Shown here: piece by piece, positions 38,287-53,242 of the stretch
Layout: the number at the start of each line of letters is the position of its first letter
How positions within the stretch are numbered: the stretch's first letter is position 1
From: an uncultured bacterium
Lineage (GTDB): Bacteria; UBP4; UBA4092
DNA: 64,000 bases
Assembly: GCA_964644695.1 (NCBI GenBank)
Contig: CAZXWN010000002.1
Location: forward strand, 186,001 to 250,000
Direction: 5' to 3'
Made by a program: the position numbers and the translations under genes
The notes under the pieces: generated by a model
Told to the model about the DNA's origin: nothing
Database searches by the model: none
What the model saw: the letters and a program-made list of their open reading frames with translations, nothing else

Positions 38287-38473
38287 ATTCTGACGGGTGA
38301 TTTACTTTCATTATTTTGACTGAAAATCAAACATCTTGTGGGGAGTGTAATTGTTTATTAAGAATTCTGTCAGGGATGACCTAATATGTCATTCTCCATT
38401 TATAGAATTAACAAAAGTAAGTGATTGGTGTATTCTTGAGACGAAGATATTGCAGAAGAGAATGAGGGTAAAT

Positions 38474-39265
38474 ATGCAGGTTCTTAATAAACCAATGTAT
38501 AACATTTTTATGGAGATGGTGACTCAATCAAATCACTCCATCCAGATATGTTCTCCATTTATTAAGAAAGAAATTGTTTCGGATTTATACCAAAACAAAA
38601 AAGATGGTGTCCGTATATCAGTTGTTACTAATATAAACTTAAAAAGTATCTGTAAGAAATCAACAGATATTGAGGCCCTCACACAAATCATTGAACAACG
38701 AGACCCCTTATATAATTTCCAACGGTTACATGCAAAGTTTTATATTTTTGATAAGCAACGGCTAGTCATTACCTCTGCCAATCTGACACCCTCAGGGATG
38801 AAACGAAATTATGAATATGGTTTATTGATAAGCGATGCCTCTATCGTAGGACAAGCTTGCAGTGATTTTAAATCACTATGTACTGATGAATCTTCCGGAA
38901 GAATTACGAGTAAACATATTTCCAAAATATCGGATATTATTCAATCTATTCCAAAACCCGAAGAAGTAAAAATACCTCGACTCGTTCTTGATTATGTAGA
39001 TACTGAAGATGTATTTGAAGATGATGTTTTGGTGATTTCTAGGAAACTCACTGGCTGGAAGAAATCCCTGTTTGATGTATTAAATGATTTTGAAAAACCA
39101 GTTTTTACAACAACAGATTTTAAACAGTTCAGTACTGTTCTTGGTACGAAGTATCCAGGCAATAATAATATTGATGCGAAAATTAGACAGCAATTGCAAG
39201 AGTTGAGAGATTTGGGTCTGATTAAATTTGTTGACCGTGGCATATATAAGAAATTATGGAAATAA
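38474..39265 (+). CDS. PLD-family nuclease fused to DpnI-like (Dam-replacing) winged-helix domain
   Basis: CSPFI, LHAKFYIFD, TSANLT, NYEYG; C-terminal YPGNNNIDAKIRQQLQELRDLGLIKFVDRGIY; start at ATG 38474 after GAGGG. Confidence 0.85.
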   Translation: MQVLNKPMYNIFMEMVTQSNHSIQICSPFIKKEIVSDLYQNKKDGVRISVVTNINLKSICKKSTDIEALTQIIEQRDPLYNFQRLHAKFYIFDKQRLVITSANLTPSGMKRNYEYGLLISDASIVGQACSDFKSLCTDESSGRITSKHISKISDIIQSIPKPEEVKIPRLVLDYVDTEDVFEDDVLVISRKLTGWKKSLFDVLNDFEKPVFTTTDFKQFSTVLGTKYPGNNNIDAKIRQQLQELRDLGLIKFVDRGIYKKLWK

Positions 39266-44232: not shown

Positions 44233-44511
44233 ATGCCAACCTACGAATATTACTGTGCCAAATGTGACAAAACCTTTGATGTATTTCAATCTATATCTGA
44301 TGAACCCGTAAAGAAATGTCCGGACTGTAACGGGAAAGTAGAACGGCTTATTTCTGGTGGAGCCGGGCTTATTTTTAAAGGTTCAGGGTTTTACATCAAT
44401 GATTATGGCCGGTCCAGTGAATACAAACAGAAATCCCAGGCCGATAAATCTGGAGGAAGTTCCGGATGTGGGTCCTGTTCGGATAAAAAGACCTGTCCCA
44501 ACGCTAAATAA
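44233..44511 (+). CDS. FmdB-family zinc-ribbon protein
   Basis: MPTYEYYCAKC...CPDC...FKGSGFYINDY. Confidence 0.9.
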   Translation: MPTYEYYCAKCDKTFDVFQSISDEPVKKCPDCNGKVERLISGGAGLIFKGSGFYINDYGRSSEYKQKSQADKSGGSSGCGSCSDKKTCPNAK

Positions 44512-44536
44512 GACATAATTGAAAAAAAAGTTTACG

Positions 44537-44572
44537 CCGGTGTCCAAATTGTGGACACCGGTTTTTCTTTTT
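44537..44572 (+). terminator. Rho-independent terminator
   Basis: CCGGTGTCCA / TGGACACCGG stem plus T-run. Confidence 0.8.
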
Positions 44573-44632: not shown

Positions 44633-44661
44633 TTGACAGGTTATTTGCCTCATGGTAATTT
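44633..44661 (+). promoter_or_regulatory. Putative sigma-70 promoter of the 7-gene operon
   Basis: TTGACA-N17-TAATTT with extended TG; AAGGAG RBS before 44704. Confidence 0.6.
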
Positions 44662-44703
44662 CAGCCCATCAGCCGATGGTTTGAATGAAGGAGTTCTAAT
44701 TGT

Positions 44704-45933
44704 ATGAGCGGTGAAATTATTGTGGTGACTTTAGCCTTCAAGGCTTTAGAGATGGTAGGGGTAAATATAGCGGTCAGTAGTTGTTCAATGACTCTCCATG
44801 CCAAAATCAAGGAGAGTATCCAGAACGCCATGGATAAAATGGAAAAACAGGACGTATTGAAAACCGAGTGGTTAAAAGAGCGAAATAATAAAAACCAAAA
44901 TATTGATCACCTCAGAAAACAGCAGCAGGAACTTCAGCAGATAATGTCTAGTGTTCGATTACAGGAAATTGAGAACCTGGGGCTTGATACCAGCTGGATG
45001 AATCAGGTTGCAACTTATTTTATTCTTAAAAAAGAATTTAATTTACAAGCGGCCAGCCACCTGATTGGATTAAACAAAGAACTAAAAGTCTTGAGTGAAA
45101 AATATGGTGAATCCGCAACCTCACCCATACCGGCATTGAGTAAACGATTAGTTCAGCTTGTGGAGAAGACCAAGACCCAAAATGGATTAATGCCAGAGGA
45201 GATTTATCAATTCCGGTCCTGGATGGGGACCAGTATCCAGCATTGGCTGGATGAATTGGAAAACTTGGAACATCGTCAGGTGGAATTGATGAATGAGAGT
45301 GTTCTTCTGATGCAAGATGTTTTGTTATGGAAATCTATTTCGGAGAATACTCCTTTATGGGAACAATGGAATTCCTTATGGGAAAATCTTGAGATTTGGA
45401 ATAATCAACCTGTTTTATCCGGGGCAAAATTTTCGGAATACCGGGACAGCTACGAGCAGCTGAAACAAAAACAACAGGATTGGTTGAATGCAGAATCTCA
45501 GGAATGGGTGGTTGCTGATTTTCTTAAAATGCATCTGGCAGAACTGGGATATTTCTGTCACACGGATTTCCCGGCCCGATTAAATAGTGATAAGATGTCG
45601 GCTCGATTCCTGATTCCCGGAGGAGAGTATCTGGATGTTAATTTATATGCCACGGGTCAGATGGGTTTCCAGGTAAAACATGCTGGGGATAAACCGGAAT
45701 CAGAACTGGATTCAGAATCTCTGGATAAATTTCGCCGGCAGGAAAATAAATGGTGTGAGGATGCCAGGGAATTATTCCGCCTGATGGCTGAGGAAGGTAT
45801 CCATTGTGAAATAACCCTGGAACAAAATGTGCCGCAATCAAGTATCCCTATTGTAATTGTAGAAACAGCAGATGAACTGGCGGAAGAAGAAGCAGCCCGC
45901 AGGTCCGAATTGAAACAGAGGAAAATGACATGA
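44704..45933 (+). CDS. Hypothetical coiled-coil protein with small C-terminal alpha/beta domain
   Basis: Q/E/L-rich helical body; C-terminal LAELGY...ENKWCED...EEGI; ATGA overlap with next gene. Confidence 0.75.
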   Translation: MSGEIIVVTLAFKALEMVGVNIAVSSCSMTLHAKIKESIQNAMDKMEKQDVLKTEWLKERNNKNQNIDHLRKQQQELQQIMSSVRLQEIENLGLDTSWMNQVATYFILKKEFNLQAASHLIGLNKELKVLSEKYGESATSPIPALSKRLVQLVEKTKTQNGLMPEEIYQFRSWMGTSIQHWLDELENLEHRQVELMNESVLLMQDVLLWKSISENTPLWEQWNSLWENLEIWNNQPVLSGAKFSEYRDSYEQLKQKQQDWLNAESQEWVVADFLKMHLAELGYFCHTDFPARLNSDKMSARFLIPGGEYLDVNLYATGQMGFQVKHAGDKPESELDSESLDKFRRQENKWCEDARELFRLMAEEGIHCEITLEQNVPQSSIPIVIVETADELAEEEAARRSELKQRKMT

Positions 45934-47870
45934 TACATACCGGACAGGAAGCTCCACGATGGATCCGGGAATTAGCCCGGTTTTTACCATTAAAAAATCT
46001 GATATTTATTCATGGGAATATTTATGACCTGATTAATTATCCTGTGGAGAAACCTTCCGGTGAGGTGTATTGGACTGAGAGTACCCATCTGGAGCATTTT
46101 CTGGAGCGGTACTTGATGGACTGTGGGTATGAAATGGTAGGTATTGGAGACACTATTGATGGAATCTATTTCCCAAAGAATGAAATGCGGGATACCTATC
46201 GGAAATTAACAATGGGGAAAACTGTTGTTACCGGGACACAGGACAAACCCTTACAGGAACCTGAATCGGACAAGAAAGTCAGCCAGAAAAGACTGTTTCC
46301 CAACGACCCTTTGGTATTGATGGATGGGGTTAAGAAGTGTATGGAAAATACGACAGTCCCTTGTGCCTTTGTGATCAATTATGCATCACGTCTGGTATCT
46401 GATTCGAGTCATTTATCTACTCCGGAACGGCAGTTGATGGCACGGATACAAAAGGCGATGATGCAAAGCCGGATTGTGATTCGGGAAAATCAACGGTGGA
46501 GTAATGTCCTGATTTTAATCGTTGATAAACTGAACGATATCCCGCCCTTTTTATATTTAAATAACCCCCGAGGCCGTTCTGTTTTTATCAATCAGCCTGA
46601 TTATTTGGAACGGCAACGGTTTATTCGCCGGAACTATCCCTATTTTTATCAGGCTAAACCAGAGGGGCCTAACCCTGAGACATTGTCACTTTTTCCAATC
46701 CTAACTGAGGGTTTGTCTTTGTATGAGATGAAATCATTAATTCATCTTTCCATGTGTGAAAAGATTCCGATTGAAGACCCAATAACTCATAATCCACGAA
46801 TTAATAATATTTGTGAGATGTACAAGTATGGAATCATTGAAAGTGAATGGGACAAAATTGATCGACAACGGCTAGAACAGGCGGACAGTTTTATACATCA
46901 GAGAATCAAAGGTCAGGAATCGGCTGTTCATCGAGTCTTGGACATCATAAAACGTGCCCGTATTGGGTTGGCTGCTGGTTCCAGTACCAAACAAAACCGG
47001 CCTAAAGGTGTTTTGTTTTTTGCGGGACCTACCGGTGTTGGAAAAACAGAAATGGCAAAAACATTGGCGACCCTTTTATTTGGGGATGAAGACCGATGTA
47101 TCCGATTTGATATGAGTGAGTATTCTGCCGAACAGTCTGATCAAAGATTATTAGGTGCACCTCCGGGGTATGTGGGGTATGAGGAAGGGGGACAATTAAC
47201 CAATCTGGTTAAAAATAACCCATTCTCTGTTCTTTTGTTTGATGAAATTGAAAAAGCTCATCGTCATATTCTGGATAAATTTCTTCAGATTCTGGAAGAT
47301 GGACGACTGACTGATGGAAAAGGAGAAACTGTTTATTTTTCTGAATCCATCATCATTTTTACCAGTAATCTGGGGACTGTCAGCCGACCCAGCATGAATC
47401 AATCCGGAGTTCCTCTGGTGAACCCTGAAATGGATTATTCTGAGATTCAGAACAGAATACTGGAATCAATCCGGGAACATTTTATCTTTGAACTGGGTCG
47501 TCCTGAAATACTAAATCGAATGGGTGATAACTTTGTCGTATTTGACTATATCCGGCCGCCCGTGGACCAGGAAATTATTGATTTATTCCTCCAACGGTTA
47601 GCTGCAAGCATGGAGAGCATCCTTCAATTACAAATTGTGGTGATGAATCCTGTCAAAGAACGTTTAACCGCATTATGTCAGGTGGAACTTCAATATGGTG
47701 GCCGGGGTATTCGAAATGTGTTTGACAGTGTGTTGGTGAATCCTTTGAACCGATTTGTATTTGATACCAGTCCTGCTAAGGGGAGTACTCTTGTCCTTCA
47801 GCAGTTGCTGGATAGCGGCACTCCGAATACTAAAGAATATTCTCTGGATATACATGTTGATCCGGTATGA
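45930..47870 (+). CDS. ClpB/ClpA-like AAA+ ATPase with a single intact (D2-type) module
   Basis: IKGQ, FAGPTGVGKTE, RFDMSEY, LLGAPPGYVGYEEGGQLT, LLFDEIEKAH, RPEILNR, GGRGIR; no Walker A in the N-terminal half. Confidence 0.88.
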   Translation: MIHTGQEAPRWIRELARFLPLKNLIFIHGNIYDLINYPVEKPSGEVYWTESTHLEHFLERYLMDCGYEMVGIGDTIDGIYFPKNEMRDTYRKLTMGKTVVTGTQDKPLQEPESDKKVSQKRLFPNDPLVLMDGVKKCMENTTVPCAFVINYASRLVSDSSHLSTPERQLMARIQKAMMQSRIVIRENQRWSNVLILIVDKLNDIPPFLYLNNPRGRSVFINQPDYLERQRFIRRNYPYFYQAKPEGPNPETLSLFPILTEGLSLYEMKSLIHLSMCEKIPIEDPITHNPRINNICEMYKYGIIESEWDKIDRQRLEQADSFIHQRIKGQESAVHRVLDIIKRARIGLAAGSSTKQNRPKGVLFFAGPTGVGKTEMAKTLATLLFGDEDRCIRFDMSEYSAEQSDQRLLGAPPGYVGYEEGGQLTNLVKNNPFSVLLFDEIEKAHRHILDKFLQILEDGRLTDGKGETVYFSESIIIFTSNLGTVSRPSMNQSGVPLVNPEMDYSEIQNRILESIREHFIFELGRPEILNRMGDNFVVFDYIRPPVDQEIIDLFLQRLAASMESILQLQIVVMNPVKERLTALCQVELQYGGRGIRNVFDSVLVNPLNRFVFDTSPAKGSTLVLQQLLDSGTPNTKEYSLDIHVDPV

Positions 47871-48478
47871 ACCTTCGACTTTTTTCCATAGCTTATCCTG
47901 TGACTGCTCTTGGACCCGGGCGGCGGTTAGCGATTTGGGTGACCGGGTGTAAGAAAAGATGTCAGGGATGTATCAGTGTGGAAATGCAACCTTTTGATGC
48001 TGGACGGGATATTGATATACGGTATCTGGTTGATAAAATCATAAATCTTTCCTGTTCACTGGAGGGAATTACTATCTCTGGAGGAGAGCCTTTTTTACAG
48101 GCAAAAGCATTAGCCTATTTGCTCCGATTAATTAAAAGAGCCTATCCGAACTGGTCTGTTATTGTCTACAGTGGGTACACTCTGCGGACACTCCAAAAAC
48201 GGTATGAGGTGCATAATTTTATTAAAGAGATTGATGTTTTGATTGATGGGCCTTATCGGGAAGGTATTGCATCAAATCATCCTTTGGCAGGATCTGGGAA
48301 CCAAAAGGTGCATGCTTTGTCTGCCAAAGGTCAAAATATGATAAAGAGTTTAAATACACTTCCTCATGGGGTTGTTAATCTCGGTGTCACAAAAGACCAT
48401 TGGAATATGTTGATAGGGATTCCTTCTTCTTCCGGTCGTGGTAAAATCCATCAAGAATTGTTTGTTGGGAAGGATTGA
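47867..48478 (+). CDS. NrdG-like radical SAM (4Fe-4S single cluster) protein
   Basis: LGPGRR..IWVTGCKKRCQGC, GITISGGEPF, YSGY, DVLIDGPY, GSGNQ. Confidence 0.88.
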   Translation: MNLRLFSIAYPVTALGPGRRLAIWVTGCKKRCQGCISVEMQPFDAGRDIDIRYLVDKIINLSCSLEGITISGGEPFLQAKALAYLLRLIKRAYPNWSVIVYSGYTLRTLQKRYEVHNFIKEIDVLIDGPYREGIASNHPLAGSGNQKVHALSAKGQNMIKSLNTLPHGVVNLGVTKDHWNMLIGIPSSSGRGKIHQELFVGKD

Positions 48479-49047
48479 ATTTGGCGGAATATGTAAAAAT
48501 ATGTCCGGTCTGTGGGTATAAGAATTCTGAAGATTCTGATGTTTGTATTCAGGATAAAGTATATCTGGGAATGGTTCCAACTGTTCGTGAGGAGGATATT
48601 GATTCCATACCAGAGTCTGTTGCCAAAGAATTAGTCGATAATTCTGAACAGCCAGCAGCTTTGCCAACGATGCCAGAACCTGATAGTAAAATTCAATTCA
48701 AGATACCTGCTGTGTTATATCTTGAGATAGATGGGATGAAACAGGTTTTTCCGGTTAAGCCAGGGGATATTGCTGGACAGGCCTATCCGGGAAACACAGC
48801 TTCCATCCAAATTAGTGATGTGCCTTTTGTAAAGTATGTGCATCGTCAACATTGCCAGTTTGATGTACAAAATAGCGAGTGGACAGTGACAGCATTGGAT
48901 CAAGGTCGATTTGGAAAAGACTTTACAAATCCAACCCGACTTAATGGGGAACTCTTAAAATTAGGGACCCCATATCCTTTGAAACAGGGAGACCAGTTGG
49001 TACTTGGGAAGCTTACCTTGAACCTCCGACTGATAAAGGATGAATAA
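48475..49047 (+). CDS. Zn-ribbon plus FHA-like domain protein
   Basis: CPVCGYKN..C; FHA-like C-terminus (VHRQHC, NPTRLNG, LKQGDQLVLG); TTG start overlapping upstream TGA. Confidence 0.75.
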   Translation: MNLAEYVKICPVCGYKNSEDSDVCIQDKVYLGMVPTVREEDIDSIPESVAKELVDNSEQPAALPTMPEPDSKIQFKIPAVLYLEIDGMKQVFPVKPGDIAGQAYPGNTASIQISDVPFVKYVHRQHCQFDVQNSEWTVTALDQGRFGKDFTNPTRLNGELLKLGTPYPLKQGDQLVLGKLTLNLRLIKDE

Positions 49048-49846
49048 ATATTTAATCTATGGACATTCAGAAACGGGGAATGTCCGGCCAAATAATGAAG
49101 ACCATATCTTGTTGGGATGTTGTGTGCAAAATGATGGTTTTATCACGGTTGATTTCTCTTTATATGATGAAATGTATCAAGAACATGGACTTTTATTTGC
49201 TGTTGCCGATGGTATTGGTGGTGCCCAGGGTGGGGAAGTCGCTAGCCGCACAGCGTTAACTGAATTTTCAGATTTTTATTATTCAATGACTAAGAATATC
49301 CATTCAGCCAAGGAATGTTGCCTGGCAATAAGTCAGGCAGCAGATCATGCGAATCATGTTCTTATGAATATGGCCAGTAATGATCCTTCTTTACATGGTA
49401 TGGGATGTACTTTGTCGGGAGTATGTTTGACTCCAAAAGGCTACTATCTTTACAACGCAGGAGACAGTAGAGTCTATCGGTATCGTGAGCAGTTTTTGCG
49501 TCATATGACAAATGATGATACCTTGACTAGTTTTGCTTTAAAAAATGGGCTTATTTCTGACACGGAAGCTTTAACCCATGATGGCCGTCATGTCTTAACA
49601 AATTGTCTAGGTATTCAATCCTTCAAGCTTGATGTACATAAAGGACCTGAATGGAATGCTTCAGACATCTTACTCGTTTGTTCGGATGGATTACATGGGA
49701 TGGTGAGCCACGATTGGATGGAAGCTATTTTGCAAAAAGAATTTACCTTTCAGGAAAAAGGCGAACAGCTCGTAACGGCTGCTTTAGTTGCTGGCGGTAA
49801 AGATAACATCTCAATTATCCTGATAAAACCCTTATATGATGAATGA
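49040..49846 (+). CDS. PP2C-family Ser/Thr protein phosphatase
   Basis: GNVRPNNED, AVADGIGG..GGEVAS, MGCT, NAGDSRVY, CSDGL, GGKDNIS. Confidence 0.93.
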   Translation: MNKYLIYGHSETGNVRPNNEDHILLGCCVQNDGFITVDFSLYDEMYQEHGLLFAVADGIGGAQGGEVASRTALTEFSDFYYSMTKNIHSAKECCLAISQAADHANHVLMNMASNDPSLHGMGCTLSGVCLTPKGYYLYNAGDSRVYRYREQFLRHMTNDDTLTSFALKNGLISDTEALTHDGRHVLTNCLGIQSFKLDVHKGPEWNASDILLVCSDGLHGMVSHDWMEAILQKEFTFQEKGEQLVTAALVAGGKDNISIILIKPLYDE

Positions 49847-52416
49847 GGTGTCCGATGGATAAGGATCAATTCCGGGGACCCATTACACATAAACTTTCTG
49901 ATGGTACTGGTCTCACCCAGCGGATGGATGATGCAATAAAACCAGATGCTTCATTAGAGGATGTCCTGAAGCCGAGTGATAAGATTGATAACCGTTATTC
50001 AGTCCTGTCAGGTCCTTTGGGTGGTAAAACAGGCGAAGCTGAAGTCTATCAATGTCGTGATGAAGACAGTGGCTCTATAGTTGCTGTAAAGCTGTATAGG
50101 AATACATCGAAACCCCGACAGGAAGTTATTGATCAATTACTAAACCTCAAGCATCCTCATCTGGTAGAACTGAAGAGCGCTTCCATTTGGCAGGGACGAT
50201 TTTATGAGGTTATGGAATTTTGCTCAGGTGGAGTTTTGGCTGAGCATCTTCCTTTATCTGAATCTATATTGAGAGAATTATTGCCAGACATATTATCTGG
50301 ATTGGAATATTGCCATGACCAGGGAATTGTTCACAGGGATATTAAACCTGGGAATTTGTATTATCGGGATGAGGACAAACAAGAAATAATCATCGGTGAT
50401 TTTGGGATCAGTTCATATCTTTCAGAAGATCATTCCCACCGAACGCAGTCCTATATGAACTTAACATTGGATTATGCTGCTCCTGAATTATTGAATCGGG
50501 AGGAAGTCAGTCCAGCAACAGATTTTTATGCATTGGGTATTACTCTTCTGCATTCTTTGCTGGGAGCTTCTCCATTTGCTGAGGTGAATAATCCAAATGC
50601 AATATTGTCTGCACACCTAATGGGGCGAGTTCCCCGAGGTGATAAGATCAGTACTTCTTTTAATCAATTGATTGACGGATTATTGCAGGTAAGGCCTGAA
50701 AATCGCTGGGGTGCTATTCAGGTTAGGCAGTGGCTTCAGAATGAACCTATTCTAACTTCTCAAGGAACACAATGGCATGCTGAATTTACTACAGGATTAG
50801 AAGTTCCTTTTCCTGGATTTCCTGAGGCCTGCACACCTCAGGAATTAGCCCAGAATTTGGACCGGTTTAATGCTGAGAGACATTTGTTCCGAGGAGATAT
50901 CTATCGTTGGGTGTTTGACTATTTTGATTCGCGGATGGCGGAACAAATTCAATCACTTGAAGAAGTTTATGCCGAAAATCATCATGTTGGAGTTTTTAAG
51001 CTGCGCTATATTTTGGACCCAACATACCCTTTGGAGATTGAAGGCTTAACAATTAAAAATGCTGAGGATTTATATGATTTGCTGGCTCATGAATTAGATG
51101 CCATTACTGAAACCCGCCTGGCATATATTTTATACAGTGGGTTGCTCGAAGCTTGGTTGACGGCGACTCAACCTCTGGAATGGGTGAATTCCATATTACC
51201 TGGTATTCATAATATTATTGAAAACCAACCTGACAAGAAACTGGGATTATTTCAGTTCCGATATTTAATTAATCCAGCTTTGGGTTTTTCTGTTAATGAG
51301 TCTATTGTTTTACGGAAGCCAGAAGATTTAACAGAGTTGGGAGTATCTAATCCAGAGTATATGGATATAATTTGTGAGCATTACAAGTCTGGTCGGTATG
51401 TGGCCTGGTTACAAATAGCATTCCCGGGTCGAAGTGATTTAATTGAAAAGATCTCTCAATTAAAGAAAGATTTTGTGGCCAAAATGTTTGCTCAGGAGTT
51501 TTTTGCCTTCCTTTGCCTTATTGATTCGGCATACCCTTTTCCCTTTCTGAATTCATTCTGTCGTACTCCTGAGGAGCTGGCCCATAGTATTGATGTTTCA
51601 ACTGAGGCAACACAGGAAGGTATACGGTTAATGAACGAAGACTGGATTCGGGTCTGGCTTGTATATACAGGGCGATTGGTTAATTTAAACTCTTTTCAAC
51701 AGATCATGAATTGTTCTTCTAAAAATGATGAAGAAAAAATGGAAAATCTACTGCATGTATTAGACCCTGTTTTGGTATGGCCAGAATTAGTGGTAAATAC
51801 TGATTTTGTCGATTTTGGTAAGGTTTTCACAAATGAAACATATACTCGAGAGATTGTTATTAGAAATCGTGGTCGTGGATATTTGTCTGGATTATCGTTT
51901 ATTCAACAGGATGATGAGCAGGCTTTAAGTATTGAGCCTGATCAGCTGTTGGGTAATTATGTGGTCATGAAGATTACTTTGAATACCGTAGGATTGCCTG
52001 TTAGTCCCAAGCACCGTGTTTTGTTAATAATTGAAACTAATGGTGGTAATTTAGCTATTCCTATAACATACCAGACCAAAGTGCATTATTTTCCAGTTTT
52101 AGGAAAAGTACTGTTAGTAGGATTATTGGTTGGTGCCACTTTGGGATTATATCGATATTTGATTTTAATTTCGGCTCCCGGGATGGTGTTTTCTTTTCCA
52201 CCACAATTTCCAGACAATTTAGTAACCACCTTAGGAATGATGTCGAGATTATCGTTATTTAACTCTGTGCCCATGTTTCTCTTTTGGATGAACTTTCTTG
52301 TTATTCTTTTGATCCAGTTATTTTATACCTTTTATCAGTTGGGACTGAACATGCTTTGTTATATGGATCGAAAAAGAAATAATAGGGATATTATTGAAGA
52401 ACAAGGGTTAGATTAA
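49843..52416 (+). CDS. Hanks-type Ser/Thr kinase with internal repeats, Ig-like domain and C-terminal TM helices
   Basis: VAVKLY, HRDIKPGN, DFG, YAAPE, DFYALG; VDFGKV..IRNRGRGYLSG..TNGG Ig-like segment; start may be 49855. Confidence 0.9.
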   Translation: MRCPMDKDQFRGPITHKLSDGTGLTQRMDDAIKPDASLEDVLKPSDKIDNRYSVLSGPLGGKTGEAEVYQCRDEDSGSIVAVKLYRNTSKPRQEVIDQLLNLKHPHLVELKSASIWQGRFYEVMEFCSGGVLAEHLPLSESILRELLPDILSGLEYCHDQGIVHRDIKPGNLYYRDEDKQEIIIGDFGISSYLSEDHSHRTQSYMNLTLDYAAPELLNREEVSPATDFYALGITLLHSLLGASPFAEVNNPNAILSAHLMGRVPRGDKISTSFNQLIDGLLQVRPENRWGAIQVRQWLQNEPILTSQGTQWHAEFTTGLEVPFPGFPEACTPQELAQNLDRFNAERHLFRGDIYRWVFDYFDSRMAEQIQSLEEVYAENHHVGVFKLRYILDPTYPLEIEGLTIKNAEDLYDLLAHELDAITETRLAYILYSGLLEAWLTATQPLEWVNSILPGIHNIIENQPDKKLGLFQFRYLINPALGFSVNESIVLRKPEDLTELGVSNPEYMDIICEHYKSGRYVAWLQIAFPGRSDLIEKISQLKKDFVAKMFAQEFFAFLCLIDSAYPFPFLNSFCRTPEELAHSIDVSTEATQEGIRLMNEDWIRVWLVYTGRLVNLNSFQQIMNCSSKNDEEKMENLLHVLDPVLVWPELVVNTDFVDFGKVFTNETYTREIVIRNRGRGYLSGLSFIQQDDEQALSIEPDQLLGNYVVMKITLNTVGLPVSPKHRVLLIIETNGGNLAIPITYQTKVHYFPVLGKVLLVGLLVGATLGLYRYLILISAPGMVFSFPPQFPDNLVTTLGMMSRLSLFNSVPMFLFWMNFLVILLIQLFYTFYQLGLNMLCYMDRKRNNRDIIEEQGLD

Positions 52417-52418
52417 AT

Positions 52419-52754
52419 ATGAGATATTATCTGATAATCTTGGGAAGCATGGCCTTAATGCTGTTAGGATTTTGGTGGATTGTCTCTTTGACCCCAGGAT
52501 TTTACTATATTGCTCTTGGATCAGTTCGGTTATACGGGTATCTTTTATCAGCTCTTGATGGATTGTTGGGATGTGTCAGATACGTCCCGATATATGTATC
52601 TTGGGGCATTATAGGGATGATGGGAACCTTTCTGATATATGGAGGGTGGGTTGTAAGAAATGAAATGCATCTAAGTAAATTGGGTATCATTCTCAACTTG
52701 GCGGCATTTCTATTTTTTGCCATATTAGTTGCATGGGGATTGGTGATTGGATAA
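52419..52754 (+). CDS. Small hypothetical membrane protein
   Basis: 111 aa, about 3 TM helices, starts 2 nt after the kinase stop. Confidence 0.65.
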   Translation: MRYYLIILGSMALMLLGFWWIVSLTPGFYYIALGSVRLYGYLLSALDGLLGCVRYVPIYVSWGIIGMMGTFLIYGGWVVRNEMHLSKLGIILNLAAFLFFAILVAWGLVIG

Positions 52755-52799
52755 AAAAAAGAAACCCACGACAATGTCGAGGGTTTTAGTGGGCAAAAA

Positions 52800-52875
52800 T
52801 GGTGGAGACGACGGGGGTCGAACCCGTGACCTTCAGACTGCCAGCCTGACGCTCTCCCAATTGAGCTACGTCCCC
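52800..52875 (-). tRNA. tRNA-Ala(GGC)
   Basis: Revcomp GGGGACG...CGTCTCCACCA with G3:U70, anticodon loop CTGGCAG, 76 nt. Confidence 0.97.
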
Positions 52876-53242
52876 ACTGGTGCAATGAATTAATTTTACC
52901 AAGATTTGGTTGACCTGCGCAAGTAGCAAATCGTCAATCTGTTAAAAAACTTTCATAATACACTGATTATTTGATTAAATGAGTGCCAAAATTCGTTTTA
53001 AGAGTGAAATGTTTGGCAGATTTAGATTTATGTTGTTACAGATAGTAATCTAAGTGAGCGTTTGAGTGGTACTTTATGATAGAGGAACCGTTTAATATGT
53101 AATCCTCTGGTTCTGGAGGCTTATCAGTTCAAATGTTGGATCGTTGAAGTCAACTCGTAAGGGTATATGGTGATATAATTCATAGGACTTGGGCTTACAG
53201 GCCTGAATGTCATATTTTTATTGAAAATAAACAGGTTAATGC

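Follow-up and report, generated by a model that had tools for sequence, protein, structure and literature searches.

The threonine-phosphorylation pathway of type VI secretion systems (T6SS) combines a Hanks-type kinase, a PP2C phosphatase, an FHA protein and an Hsp100-family ATPase (PpkA, PppA, Fha1/TagH and TssH/ClpV). The operon analyzed here encodes the same four kinds of protein, its Hanks kinase likewise being a membrane protein, and the ATPase presumably also works on a single structural protein dedicated to it; however, the operon also encodes a radical-SAM enzyme and a member of a family termed G1, neither of which belongs to T6SS. The ATPase (g2) resembles the class-1 Hsp100 proteins ClpB, ClpC and Hsp104 in its D1+D2 fold (Z about 29), its D2 Walker A and B motifs, GYVGY pore loop and D2-small domain, but it has no N-domain and no Walker A motif in D1, scores at most one fifth of the cut-offs of the ClpB, ClpA and ClpG models, and is encoded with a radical-SAM enzyme instead of the ClpP or DnaK partners of Hsp100 unfoldases. 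With a D2-type ring as the only one predicted to hydrolyse ATP, it is comparable to single-ring Skd3/CLPB. The radical-SAM enzyme (g3) has the small size, N-terminal CxxxCxxC motif, Gly-rich loop before the cluster, GGEP and GSxNQ motifs of the activases NrdG and PflA, whereas no glycyl-radical enzyme adjoins it, its constant neighbours being the FHA protein and the Hsp100 ATPase.

The TerY-P triad consists of the vWA protein TerY, a PP2C phosphatase and a kinase. As in TerY-P, PD-T4-6 and the MADS system with Mad6, a Hanks kinase (with PP2C) appears as the switch of an accessory module. The kinase domain of g6, and this domain only, matches mad6 (1.5e-48) and PD-T4-6 (1.3e-36), but g6 reaches 100.3 with the NCBIfam MAD6 model, the cut-off of which is 460, and a vWA domain is absent from all seven proteins. 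Dodola is described as comprising two genes, and its DolB as having a predicted ClpB domain (PMC11514479). The PADLOC model of DolB matches the ClpB-type ATPase domain of g2 (8.1e-22, residues 278–483), but covers the D2 core only; the other genes of the operon gave no DolA-like match, and kinase, phosphatase, FHA and radical-SAM genes are not part of Dodola as described there.

Organization of the operon

Seven same-strand open reading frames extend over positions 44704–52754 of the window, i.e., the whole stretch of 64,000 nucleotides that was analyzed:

44536–44562, forward strand: intrinsic-terminator-like hairpin (11 pairs, 7 of them G-C, loop of 5, tail TTTTTCTTTTT)
44633–44661, forward strand: candidate promoter read from the sequence (TTGACA 44633–44638, 17-nt spacer, TAATTT 44656–44661)
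44704–45933, forward strand: g1, G1 family, 409 aa, open reading frame
45930–47870, forward strand: g2, Hsp100/Clp-type AAA+ protein, 646 aa (AAA_2 and ClpB D2-small)
47867–48478, forward strand: g3, NrdG-like radical-SAM enzyme, 203 aa (Fer4_12/Radical_SAM, CxxxCxxC)
48475–49047, forward strand: g4, Zn-ribbon and FHA protein, 190 aa (FHA; TTG start)
49040–49846, forward strand: g5, PP2C-type Ser/Thr phosphatase, 268 aa (PP2C)
49843–52416, forward strand: g6, Hanks-type Ser/Thr kinase, 857 aa (Pkinase)
52419–52754, forward strand: g7, small hydrophobic protein, 111 aa (hydrophobic segments; module membership doubtful)
52800–52875, convergent to the operon: tRNA-Ala(ggc)

The reading frames, their junctions (ATGA at 45930, 47867 and 49843, TTGA at 48475, 8 nt shared at 49040, and g7 starting at 52419 after a gap of 2 nt), the boundaries (a strong terminator before, tRNA-Ala after) and the domain calls (AAA_2 plus ClpB D2-small, Fer4_12/Radical_SAM, FHA, PP2C and Pkinase) all agree with the initial annotation. 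The terminator-like hairpin closes an upstream Zn-ribbon gene and forms the 5' boundary of the operon. The proposed TTGACA-N17-TAATTT promoter can indeed be read, and TGG precedes TAATTT, so that a TG is located just upstream as in an extended -10; however, it does not appear in the list of the promoter scan, because its -10 matches TATAAT at only three of six positions. Since the scan returned fewer promoter-like sites than shuffled sequences did (16 vs 24.5 ± 5.7), this candidate promoter of the operon is plausible at most.

The operon, the host of which is a sludge bacterium, is located downstream of groES-groEL. Its flanks in the window comprise groESL, the Zn-ribbon gene, the tRNA gene, and type IV pilus/T2SS genes, and this placement is kept in a second genome, G001. 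Its GC content is 40.6%, that of the window 42.7%. As had been noted, nrdD, a PFL-type domain and clpP do not occur within the window; they are on other contigs, beyond the window, or absent.

The Hsp100-type ATPase and the G1 family

The module ATPase is a two-tier Hsp100 protein in which D1 is dead but D2 is intact, and not a Clp D2 module alone, as it had been described. The g2 protein matches AAA_2 (2e-49) and also the ClpB model TIGR03346, the latter with 258.5 bits where the cut-off is 1232.1. Residues 7–300 form a degenerate D1 that has lost its Walker A motif, and residues ~310–646 an intact D2 including the D2-small domain, with Walker A (GPTGVGKT) at 366, the GYVGY pore loop at 413 and Walker B (DEIEKA) at 438. 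Residues 7–646 of the AF2 model (pLDDT 82.7) fit D1+D2 of ClpC/ClpB/ClpA (VIA-align, Z 29, 500–523 residues aligned). None of 40 homologues has a Walker A motif in the first 300 residues, while Walker A and Walker B of D2 are present in all 40 and GYVGY in 37.

For the family founded by the upstream "coiled-coil" protein, Pfam has no model, and searches of Pfam, NCBIfam and PADLOC assigned g1 to no family. The Met-Ser-Gly-Glu N-terminus, with a hydrophobic stretch at residues 4–25, is followed by a long helical region (26–280) and a conserved C-terminal alpha/beta domain (284–372), with which Tyr283 and Cys351 are residues of note; the AF2 model (pLDDT 74.9) is composed mostly of long helices. 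The C-terminal domain, a weak match to a KA1-like fold (Z 8–9.3), is common to five subfamilies of upstream genes (hhalign 77–98.5%, 8 of 10 pairs), across which the N-terminal motif and the Cys are also conserved. An N-terminal Ser-Gly was found in 37 of 45 G1 reading frames, compared to 6 of 999 controls. G1 has 597 library representatives at E<=1e-3, and 100 of 129 near-full-length library matches start with [MVL]-S-G. Cys351 is kept in 40/41 sequences. Since position 3 is Ser, Ala, Cys or Thr in 19 of the 129 near-full-length matches, and Gly282 is conserved in only 30/41, G1 is not an obvious glycyl-radical protein. We propose that it is a client or adaptor of the ATPase.

The radical-SAM enzyme

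The g3 protein shows an LGPGRR loop, the cluster motif C28-x3-C32-x2-C35, GGEP and GSGNQ. It matches Fer4_12 (1.6e-31); its top NCBIfam match is NrdG (TIGR02491), with 98.6 bits below the cut-off of 126.1, and its closest solved relative is PflA (E 1.9e-4). The N-terminal LGxGxR loop of activase type, which aligns with the DGPGIR loop of PflA, is invariant across 40 homologues, as is the cluster motif. In activases, the Gly-rich loop binds the substrate peptide. The nrdD gene of this genome is accompanied by an activase of its own directly beside it, and so has no need of g3.

FHA protein, phosphatase, kinase and g7

The FHA domain of g4 (1.3e-7) carries GQ and HRQH, whereas most members in the family alignment have GR and SRxH; among the 12 loci of the window's clade, Gln replaces the phosphate-binding Arg in 11 and His replaces Ser in 9, and PP2C is missing from 5. 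The domains of the kinase-PP2C-FHA phosphoswitch assumed initially are present, but the FHA replacements make a textbook phosphothreonine switch doubtful here; judging from these residues, the switch may work differently in this clade, or not at all. The g5 protein matches PP2C_2 (6.6e-9) and, below the cut-off of 230, the Stp1/IreP model NF033484 (184.1 bits). In g6, the kinase domain (residues 64–295; Pkinase, 3e-44) has readable VAVK, HRD and DFG motifs, and is followed by a middle region of about 440 aa that matches no family and is conserved only in the close clade. Two C-terminal hydrophobic helices (747–765 and 803–831, hydropathy window) bear out its description as a membrane kinase; such helices are found in most kinases of the module.

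The g7 protein, with two to four hydrophobic segments by hydropathy window, is possibly co-translated with g6. Its homologues are absent from all of the first five loci, the closest relative included, and therefore the conserved set consists of six genes; the operon had been proposed as a seven-gene system, of which the six form a recurrent module. Unrelated small membrane reading frames (c32, c92) occupy a similar place in five other loci.

Distribution and gene linkage

A gene-neighbourhood search retrieved homologues that occur together in unrelated genomes; their conserved order, with identities of 24–61%, is seen at loci from UBP4, Desulforhabdus, Desulforudis and "Deltaproteobacteria". 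Other phyla have the genes in this order as well, which places the arrangement far beyond chance. As initially supposed, no named system in PADLOC, NCBIfam, Pfam or the literature searched matches it, nor did this literature contain a description of the module. The operon is one representative of a module that is conserved, sparsely and patchily distributed, and apparently undescribed.

Relatives of the ATPase N-terminal domain were found in 192 genome stretches of the species-genome collection, 80 of which were kept as loci for counting partners within 10 kb. The radical-SAM gene accompanies the ATPase in 53 of the 80 loci, G1 in 48, FHA and kinase in 43 each, and PP2C in 32; all five partners occur in 26/80 loci, and in 21 of the 38 that have at least 5 kb of flank on both sides. 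The tightest gene pair of the module is radical-SAM and FHA, which are adjacent in 41 of 42 loci (ATPase and radical-SAM, 48/53; G1 and ATPase, 38/48). The initial suggestion of the coiled-coil protein as the target of the radical-SAM enzyme is unsupported; in the genomes, the closest partner of this enzyme is the FHA/Zn-ribbon protein.

The module may also be split, in which case the genome retains both halves: a radical-SAM gene missing next to a module-type ATPase was found elsewhere. It lies just beyond the locus in L062; the genomes of L012, L023 and L009 have a module-type radical-SAM gene (202–228 bits) at another locus, where it adjoins FHA and in one of the three also occurs with PP2C and kinase. 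The copy in the L057 genome is weaker (149.6 bits). Pairwise identities of ATPase and radical-SAM proteins correlate with r = 0.91 (maximum of 0.20 in 1000 label shuffles), a value confounded by host kinship. A clade of gut Clostridia, accounting for 9 of the 38 full-flank loci, has the same ATPase type but none of the partners, its best radical-SAM matches (102–133 bits) being at the level of ordinary NrdG; therefore, the ATPase can work without them.

The ATPase relatives span a wide range of phyla, and the distribution of the module is patchy: G000 and G001 have it, but G002, a genome of the same family, does not, nor do G003 and G004, which belong to the same class. The Desulforudis copy (Bacillota) is 51% identical to the proteobacterial type, compared to 39–40% for other Bacillota copies, which suggests transfer.

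Proposed function and alternative explanations

The explanation we favor, tentatively and with slightly less than even confidence, is a kinase-gated unfoldase/radical-SAM module of two halves with an accessory stress or conflict role. What we observe is the genes, their domain and motif content, a D1 that is dead beside a D2 that is live, conserved linkage, and the presence of both halves in a genome where they are unlinked; every interaction, substrate and role in this working is one that we infer. One half consists of the G1 protein and the Hsp100-type ATPase with its dead upper and pore-loop-bearing lower ring, the other of the NrdG-like radical-SAM enzyme and the Zn-ribbon/FHA protein, usually with PP2C and the membrane-anchored Hanks kinase. 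Held by its C-terminal helices, the kinase would sense a membrane or envelope signal, to be reset by PP2C, and the FHA/Zn-ribbon protein would position or control the radical-SAM enzyme. The ATPase might grip G1 by its near-invariant N-terminal Ser-Gly end and unfold or extract it. By analogy with glycyl-radical activases, the radical-SAM enzyme could take a hydrogen atom from a protein, for which G1 (Ser2, Cys351) and the FHA protein are candidates. Such a module would serve an accessory stress or conflict response in anaerobes. The tighter association of the radical-SAM gene with FHA than with G1 counts against a G1-centered working.

An anti-phage or conflict system of the abortive-infection type is possible, but rather unlikely. 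The kinase would sense infection, and the ATPase would arm or disarm an effector harming the cell or the invader, either the radical-SAM enzyme or G1, the N-terminus of which is hydrophobic. The patchiness within family and class, the phylum range and the putative transfer involving Desulforudis are consistent with such a function, as are additional effector-like genes within or next to some copies (behind the ATPase, L062 has a PLD-family nuclease-like gene and L023 a Fic/DOC gene), and domain-level PADLOC matches of the ATPase (DolB, PDC-M37B) and the kinase (mad6, PD-T4-6). However, in an uncontrolled count of 169 proteins that flank the loci with both ATPase and radical-SAM, defence-specific PADLOC matches at E<=1e-10 were limited to about 4 (a reverse transcriptase, a Cas6, PDC-S01 and PDC-S68); the remaining matches were generic. 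A single relative was detected among 2.9 million viral contigs, no integrase was seen in this window, and the housekeeping flanks, the placement kept in G001 and the similar GC content likewise argue against defence. These data lend little to the defence role raised by the initial annotation.

The four part types shared with T6SS bring to mind an assembly-disassembly cycle, in which G1 would form a coiled-coil membrane structure, kinase, PP2C and FHA would act as trigger, and a ClpV-like ATPase would recognize the G1 N-terminus and dismantle the structure, the radical-SAM enzyme being an accessory. The mostly helical G1 with its conserved N-terminal tag would suit this idea, and the TssH and TagH-type FHA models do give matches (200 and 20.8 bits), yet we consider it improbable: both scores are far under the cut-offs (884.95 for TssH), and a VipB/TssC sheath gene is absent from the genome, the completeness of which is 98.67%. 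Moreover, ClpV uses its N-domain, which the module ATPase with its dead D1 lacks, and the radical-SAM gene as the most constant partner of the ATPase (53/80) and of FHA would be left unexplained.

Formation of a small molecule by the radical-SAM enzyme, QueE-like or viperin-like, on a nucleotide or pterin, with the other proteins sensing and regulating, appears more improbable still. The Fer4_12/COG0602-type fold is common to NrdG and QueE, and weak matches to QueE (TIGR04349, 26.3 bits), viperin (NF038283, 15.1) and pVip (13.5) were obtained, but QueE and viperin trail far behind the NrdG and PflA models in score, the invariant LGxGxR loop is the one that aligns with PflA, and the recurrent genes of the module include none that handles nucleotides or pterins. 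Finally, a chance association of a spare NrdG and a ClpB paralogue with a housekeeping kinase/PP2C/FHA trio downstream of groESL is barely credible: every domain has housekeeping relatives and the operon does follow groES-groEL, but the linkage recurs across phyla, elsewhere away from groESL, nrdD has an activase of its own, and the pseudo-D1 ATPase and G1 are specific to the module context.

Operon organization

The initial annotation described seven genes with overlapping or abutting ends, set between a terminator and a tRNA gene, and ORF calling bore this out: ATGA overlaps occur at 45930, 47867 and 49843, and the remaining junctions are TTGA (48475), an 8-nt overlap (49040) and a 2-nt gap (52417–52418). 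Features of the region are the following.

38351–39265 (+), gene for a 304-aa protein combining DpnI_C (Dam-replacing HTH) and PLD-family nuclease domains
44233–44511 (+), FmdB-type Zn-ribbon small protein, after groEL
44536–44562, strong terminator-like hairpin closing the Zn-ribbon gene, upstream of the operon
44704–52754 (+), operon genes g1 to g7
52505–52885 (−), 126-aa ORF overlapping g7 and the tRNA-Ala gene, almost certainly spurious
52800–52875, tRNA-Ala(ggc), convergent with the operon

Pfam and NCBIfam confirmed the domain calls for g2 (AAA_2 and ClpB D2-small), g3 (Fer4_12/Radical_SAM), g4 (FHA), g5 (PP2C) and g6 (Pkinase), while g1 and the small hydrophobic protein g7 have no Pfam, NCBIfam or PADLOC family. 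The promoter proposed for the operon is readable as TTGACA separated by 17 nt from TAATTT, with TG immediately preceding the −10 hexamer, but it is absent from the promoter-scan list because its −10 matches at 3 of 6 positions; as the scan returned fewer promoter-like sites than shuffled sequences did, the assignment is no more than plausible. The four sequencing runs consulted (three labelled RNA-Seq) consist of contigs, probably of DNA, and give no transcription reading for the operon.

The 304-aa PLD/DpnI_C protein resembles a methyl-directed restriction nuclease; its gene precedes the operon by about 5.4 kb, with a GH36 alpha-galactosidase gene and groESL in between. Relatives without the operon also retain the groES-groEL-Zn-ribbon trio.

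Recurrence and distribution of the module

The genes g1–g6, hereafter the module, are real and conserved as a set, and apparently undescribed. Five loci came from an initial search with g2. Genes g2–g6 keep their order in four of them (UBP4, Desulforhabdus, Desulforudis and a “Deltaproteobacteria” MAG), and a g1 homologue is present in both loci that extend far enough upstream; the joint gene neighbourhood recurs in other phyla, contrary to the refuting case named in the initial annotation (no conserved order in unrelated genomes). A profile search with the first 310 residues of the ATPase in 185,579 species genomes yielded 192 relatives, of which 80 loci were kept and re-scanned with HMMs built from clustered ORFs. 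Within 10 kb of the ATPase gene, these 80 loci, many of them on short contigs, contain genes for the radical-SAM protein (53), G1 (48), FHA (43), kinase (43) and PP2C (32), with all five present in 26. Where at least 5 kb of sequence is available on each side (38 loci), 21 loci have all five partners, 3 lack PP2C alone, 5 show other incomplete sets and 9 have no partner. Gene order varies with the clade.

Gene orders of the module
Order; Occurrence
G1-ATPase-rSAM-FHA-(PP2C)-kinase; clade of the window, several Bacillota
PP2C-kinase-G1-ATPase-rSAM-FHA; Bacteroidota
kinase-x-G1-FHA-rSAM-ATPase; some Clostridia

According to their record labels, the loci belong to Nitrospirota, Thermodesulfobacteriota, Gamma- and Zetaproteobacteria, Hydrogenedentota, Bacteroidota, Ignavibacteria, Bacillota, Spirochaetota, Verrucomicrobia and others. 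Among loci L013, L034 and L014 are two bacterial-type copies in archaeal-labelled MAGs (Bathyarchaeia and Heimdallarchaeota) and one in a sulfidic-cave MAG labelled Borreliella garinii; L013 has the gene order of the Hydrogenedentota locus L015. The archaeal and B. garinii labels look like binning or labelling errors and not like the true range. Additional genes accompany the module in places. A class-I SAM methyltransferase gene lies between the G1 and ATPase genes of two Bacteroidota loci (L049, 9273–9851, and L044), and in the window's clade four loci (L007, 16426–17658; L013; L015; L019) encode, next to the module, a protein with an FGE-sulfatase domain, a frequent companion of bacterial kinases as a sensor.

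Of the related genomes, G001 has the module (63% identity) at the same site, with the groESL/Zn-ribbon genes on one side and pilus genes on the other; G002, G003 and G004 lack it. No clean empty site was demonstrable in G002 and G003, because these genomes have the groESL/Zn-ribbon genes and the pilus genes on separate contigs.

Two halves of the module

Gene adjacency is tightest for the radical-SAM and FHA genes, which are neighbours in 41 of the 42 loci containing both, followed by ATPase and radical-SAM (48/53) and G1 and ATPase (38/48). Five loci with a module-type ATPase but no neighbouring radical-SAM gene were followed up. In L062, the radical-SAM gene lies just beyond the end of the fetched locus. 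The genome of L012 has a module-type radical-SAM gene elsewhere, with FHA, PP2C and kinase genes after it, and that of L023 likewise has a copy at a separate locus, with FHA after it; the L009 genome has a copy (227.6 bits) on a different contig, and the L057 genome a weaker one (149.6 bits) at a contig end. G1 plus ATPase, and radical-SAM plus FHA (with PP2C and kinase), are thus co-retained in genomes even when unlinked, which is a stronger argument for functional dependence than adjacency provides. A complex prediction of full-length g2 with g3 (ipSAE 0.00 in two runs, made without control pairs) speaks neither for nor against a contact.

A clade of the same dead-D1 ATPase type, comprising L060, L061, L067, L070, L074, L077, L079–L081 and others, comes without G1, radical-SAM, FHA or kinase genes. 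Its hosts are gut and rumen Clostridia, in which the ATPase gene stands beside unrelated small genes without a Pfam family. The best radical-SAM matches in the gut Clostridia with a lone ATPase reach 102–133 bits over the core only and look like ordinary NrdG.

The ATPase

The AF2 model of g2 (pLDDT 82.7) aligns over residues 7–646 with the D1 and D2 rings of ClpC, ClpB, ClpA and Hsp104 (VIA-align, Z about 29 over 500–523 residues; e.g., 9a66_A and 6oax_E). Since the model spans both Hsp100 rings, the “unknown N-domain”, whose profile retrieved nothing in a PDB sequence search (E 0.95), corresponds to the D1 ring. None of 40 homologues, that of the window included, has a Walker A motif (GxxxxGK[ST]) within the first 300 residues, whereas in D2 both Walker A and Walker B are present in 40/40 and the GYVGY pore loop, at residue 413 of g2, in 37/40. 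Hence g2 shares with class 1 ClpB/Hsp100 proteins the two-tier fold and the D2 pore-loop tyrosine, but these have two active rings, and g2 lacks Walker A in D1 and scores below the curated cut-offs: 258.5 against 1232.1 for ClpB, 206.3 against 993.15 for ClpA, and 200 against 884.95 for TssH, the ClpB, ClpA, ClpG and TssH models all scoring it at no more than one-fifth of their cut-offs. An N-terminal Clp domain is absent from g2.

The radical-SAM enzyme

The best models for g3 are those of the activases NrdG (TIGR02491, 98.6 bits; cut-off 126.1) and PflA (TIGR02493, 49.8; cut-off 231.75), PflA being its sole solved relative by sequence. LGxGxR, which aligns with the PflA loop DGPGIR, CxxxCxxC, GGxP and GSxNQ are kept in 40 homologues; C28, C32, C35 and G72-G73 are invariant in these sequences, and E74 is conserved in at least 90%. 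Like the activases of glycyl-radical enzymes, g3 therefore has the CxxxCxxC cluster motif and the SAM-binding GGE motif, but it differs from them in scoring below the curated cut-offs and in having no cognate glycyl-radical partner. The operon encodes no glycyl-radical enzyme, a PFL-type Gly_radical domain is absent from the genome, and the window contains no nrdD, PFL-type domain or clpP, in agreement with the first reading. Because the nrdD of the genome, located on another contig, is followed by an activase-type ORF of its own, g3 is, judged by its sequence, an orphan activase-like enzyme. Outside the window, about 46 kb from its end, a 697-aa frame contains a second, weak NRDD-like match (G000:C2:295939-296991), distinct from the clear contig-6 nrdD.

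The G1 family

BLAST relatives of g1 are weak (24–35% identity), and a word-based homologue search recovered its own cluster alone. Profile-profile comparison showed that its C-terminal domain is common to the genes preceding the ATPase in other clades (ORF clusters c5, c9, c11 and c18). Among the resulting five subfamilies, eight of ten pairs match with probabilities of 77–98.5%, the pairs 5/9 and 9/11 failing. All five begin with Met-Ser-Gly: of the 45 G1 ORFs that no contig end truncates, 37 open with a start codon followed by Ser-Gly, versus 6 of 999 other ORFs from the same loci. Searching 1.84 billion representatives with a G1 profile returned 597 matches at E≤1e-3, 167 of them at E≤1e-30. 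Among the listed matches of at least 380 aa (n=129, mostly of the window's subfamily), 100 start with [MVL]-Ser-Gly; Ser occupies position 2 in 120, and 19 have Ser, Ala, Cys or Thr at position 3. Cys351 (40/41) and Tyr283 (39/41) are conserved across subfamilies; a hydrophobic, Gly/Ala-rich stretch after the N-terminal tag is present in the window's subfamily and missing in the others.

The g1 model (pLDDT 74.9, with the first 27 residues below 50) consists of long helices followed by a four-stranded sheet with helices. It had no Foldseek match in the PDB at E≤0.001; a PDB sequence search with the G1 profile returned only coiled-coil noise (best E 0.0055), and the ESM Atlas only unnamed clusters (0.92 and below). 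KA1-like matches (VIA-align wide, Z 8–9.3) fall within the common range of the tool, and an assignment as KA1 protein was not adopted. A glycyl radical on Gly3 or Gly282 of G1 was rejected, as both glycines are non-invariant.

Kinase, FHA protein and phosphatase

With a Pkinase domain (3e-44) and the catalytic Lys, HRD and DFG elements, readable in the translation as VAVK, HRDIKPGN and DFG, g6 is by its residues a Hanks-type Ser/Thr kinase. It has two C-terminal hydrophobic helices, and most module kinases have such helices; its middle region matched DUF5717_N in the ESM Atlas (0.83), a lead only. The module FHA proteins carry a Zn-ribbon. Canonical phosphothreonine-binding FHA domains have conserved Gly-Arg, Ser-x-x-His and Asn, the Arg and Ser contacting the phosphate. 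Most other clades read GR / SR..H / N, whereas the FHA of the window reads GQ / HRQH / N and lacks this canonical set; of the 12 loci in its clade, 11 have GQ and 9, among them that of the window, have His in place of Ser. Without the canonical Arg and Ser, the FHA domain of this clade may bind something else.

Relation to known systems and possible role

The claim that the gene set matches no named system held, with no system-level match in PADLOC, NCBIfam or Pfam; in PADLOC, g1, g4 and g7 had no match at E≤0.01. Dodola has DolA next to DolB, whereas no gene here matches DolA (PADLOC, E≤0.01), and the papers retrieved on Dodola and ClpB were Dodola papers alone. TerY-P combines a vWA protein (TerY) with kinase and PP2C, whereas none of the seven proteins has a vWA family. 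Unlike the threonine-phosphorylation pathway of the T6SS with its ClpV, the operon lies in a genome (98.67% complete) without a match to the sheath (TssB/TssC) family VipB (PF05943). Ophion, composed of radical-SAM, PHP and PRTase proteins (10.1101/2025.09.30.679545), is a different system. No published description of the gene set was found in the accessible text of the literature; supplementary tables could list such neighbourhoods (PMC7159879, 10.64898/2026.10.19.760177, 10.1101/2025.09.30.679545).

The anatomy of the module is now clearer, with a dead-D1 Hsp100, a G1 family bearing an N-terminal tag, a radical-SAM-FHA pair, and two halves; the mechanism that we infer from it has at best about an even chance of being right. 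The full combination, in which an Hsp100 unfoldase and a glycyl-radical-activase-like enzyme cooperate on a dedicated non-enzyme client under the control of a membrane kinase, seems to us rather unlikely. The dead-D1/live-D2 ATPase would grip the Ser-Gly N-terminus of G1 and expose it, the FHA-bound radical-SAM enzyme would then place a radical or covalent change on a protein, and the membrane kinase would control the whole. To our knowledge, NrdG/PflA-type activases have no partners except metabolic glycyl-radical enzymes, and we know of Hsp100 unfoldases solely as disaggregases, protease partners and the T6SS recycler. If true, this cooperation would constitute the first protein-radical system outside metabolism and a triggered membrane or self-destruct effector of anaerobes, possibly also an oxygen reporter. 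A conserved activase-Hsp100 module under a eukaryote-like kinase switch would open a new field in protein-radical biology and in AAA+ client selection, and would add, in G1, a protein family with a striking, testable N-terminal tag.

A role in conflict is hinted at by the patchy occurrence among the relatives (G001 versus G002–G004), by signs of transfer of the module, and by a PLD nuclease-like gene in L062 (9177–10415) and a Fic/DOC gene in L023 (12113–12919), each directly 3′ of the ATPase gene as if encoding extra or alternative effectors. However, the flanks of the loci have few defence hits (PADLOC, counted without a control set), the viral contig collection contains a single relative, and in the window the operon is flanked by housekeeping genes and has a GC content near that of the window as a whole. 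Were the role defence, the module would represent an immune system of a new type, present in anaerobes that include gut Bacteroidota and Clostridia. The sequencing runs mentioned above show near-identical DNA (95–99%) in metagenomes from sludge, wastewater and biogas, sampled in several studies.
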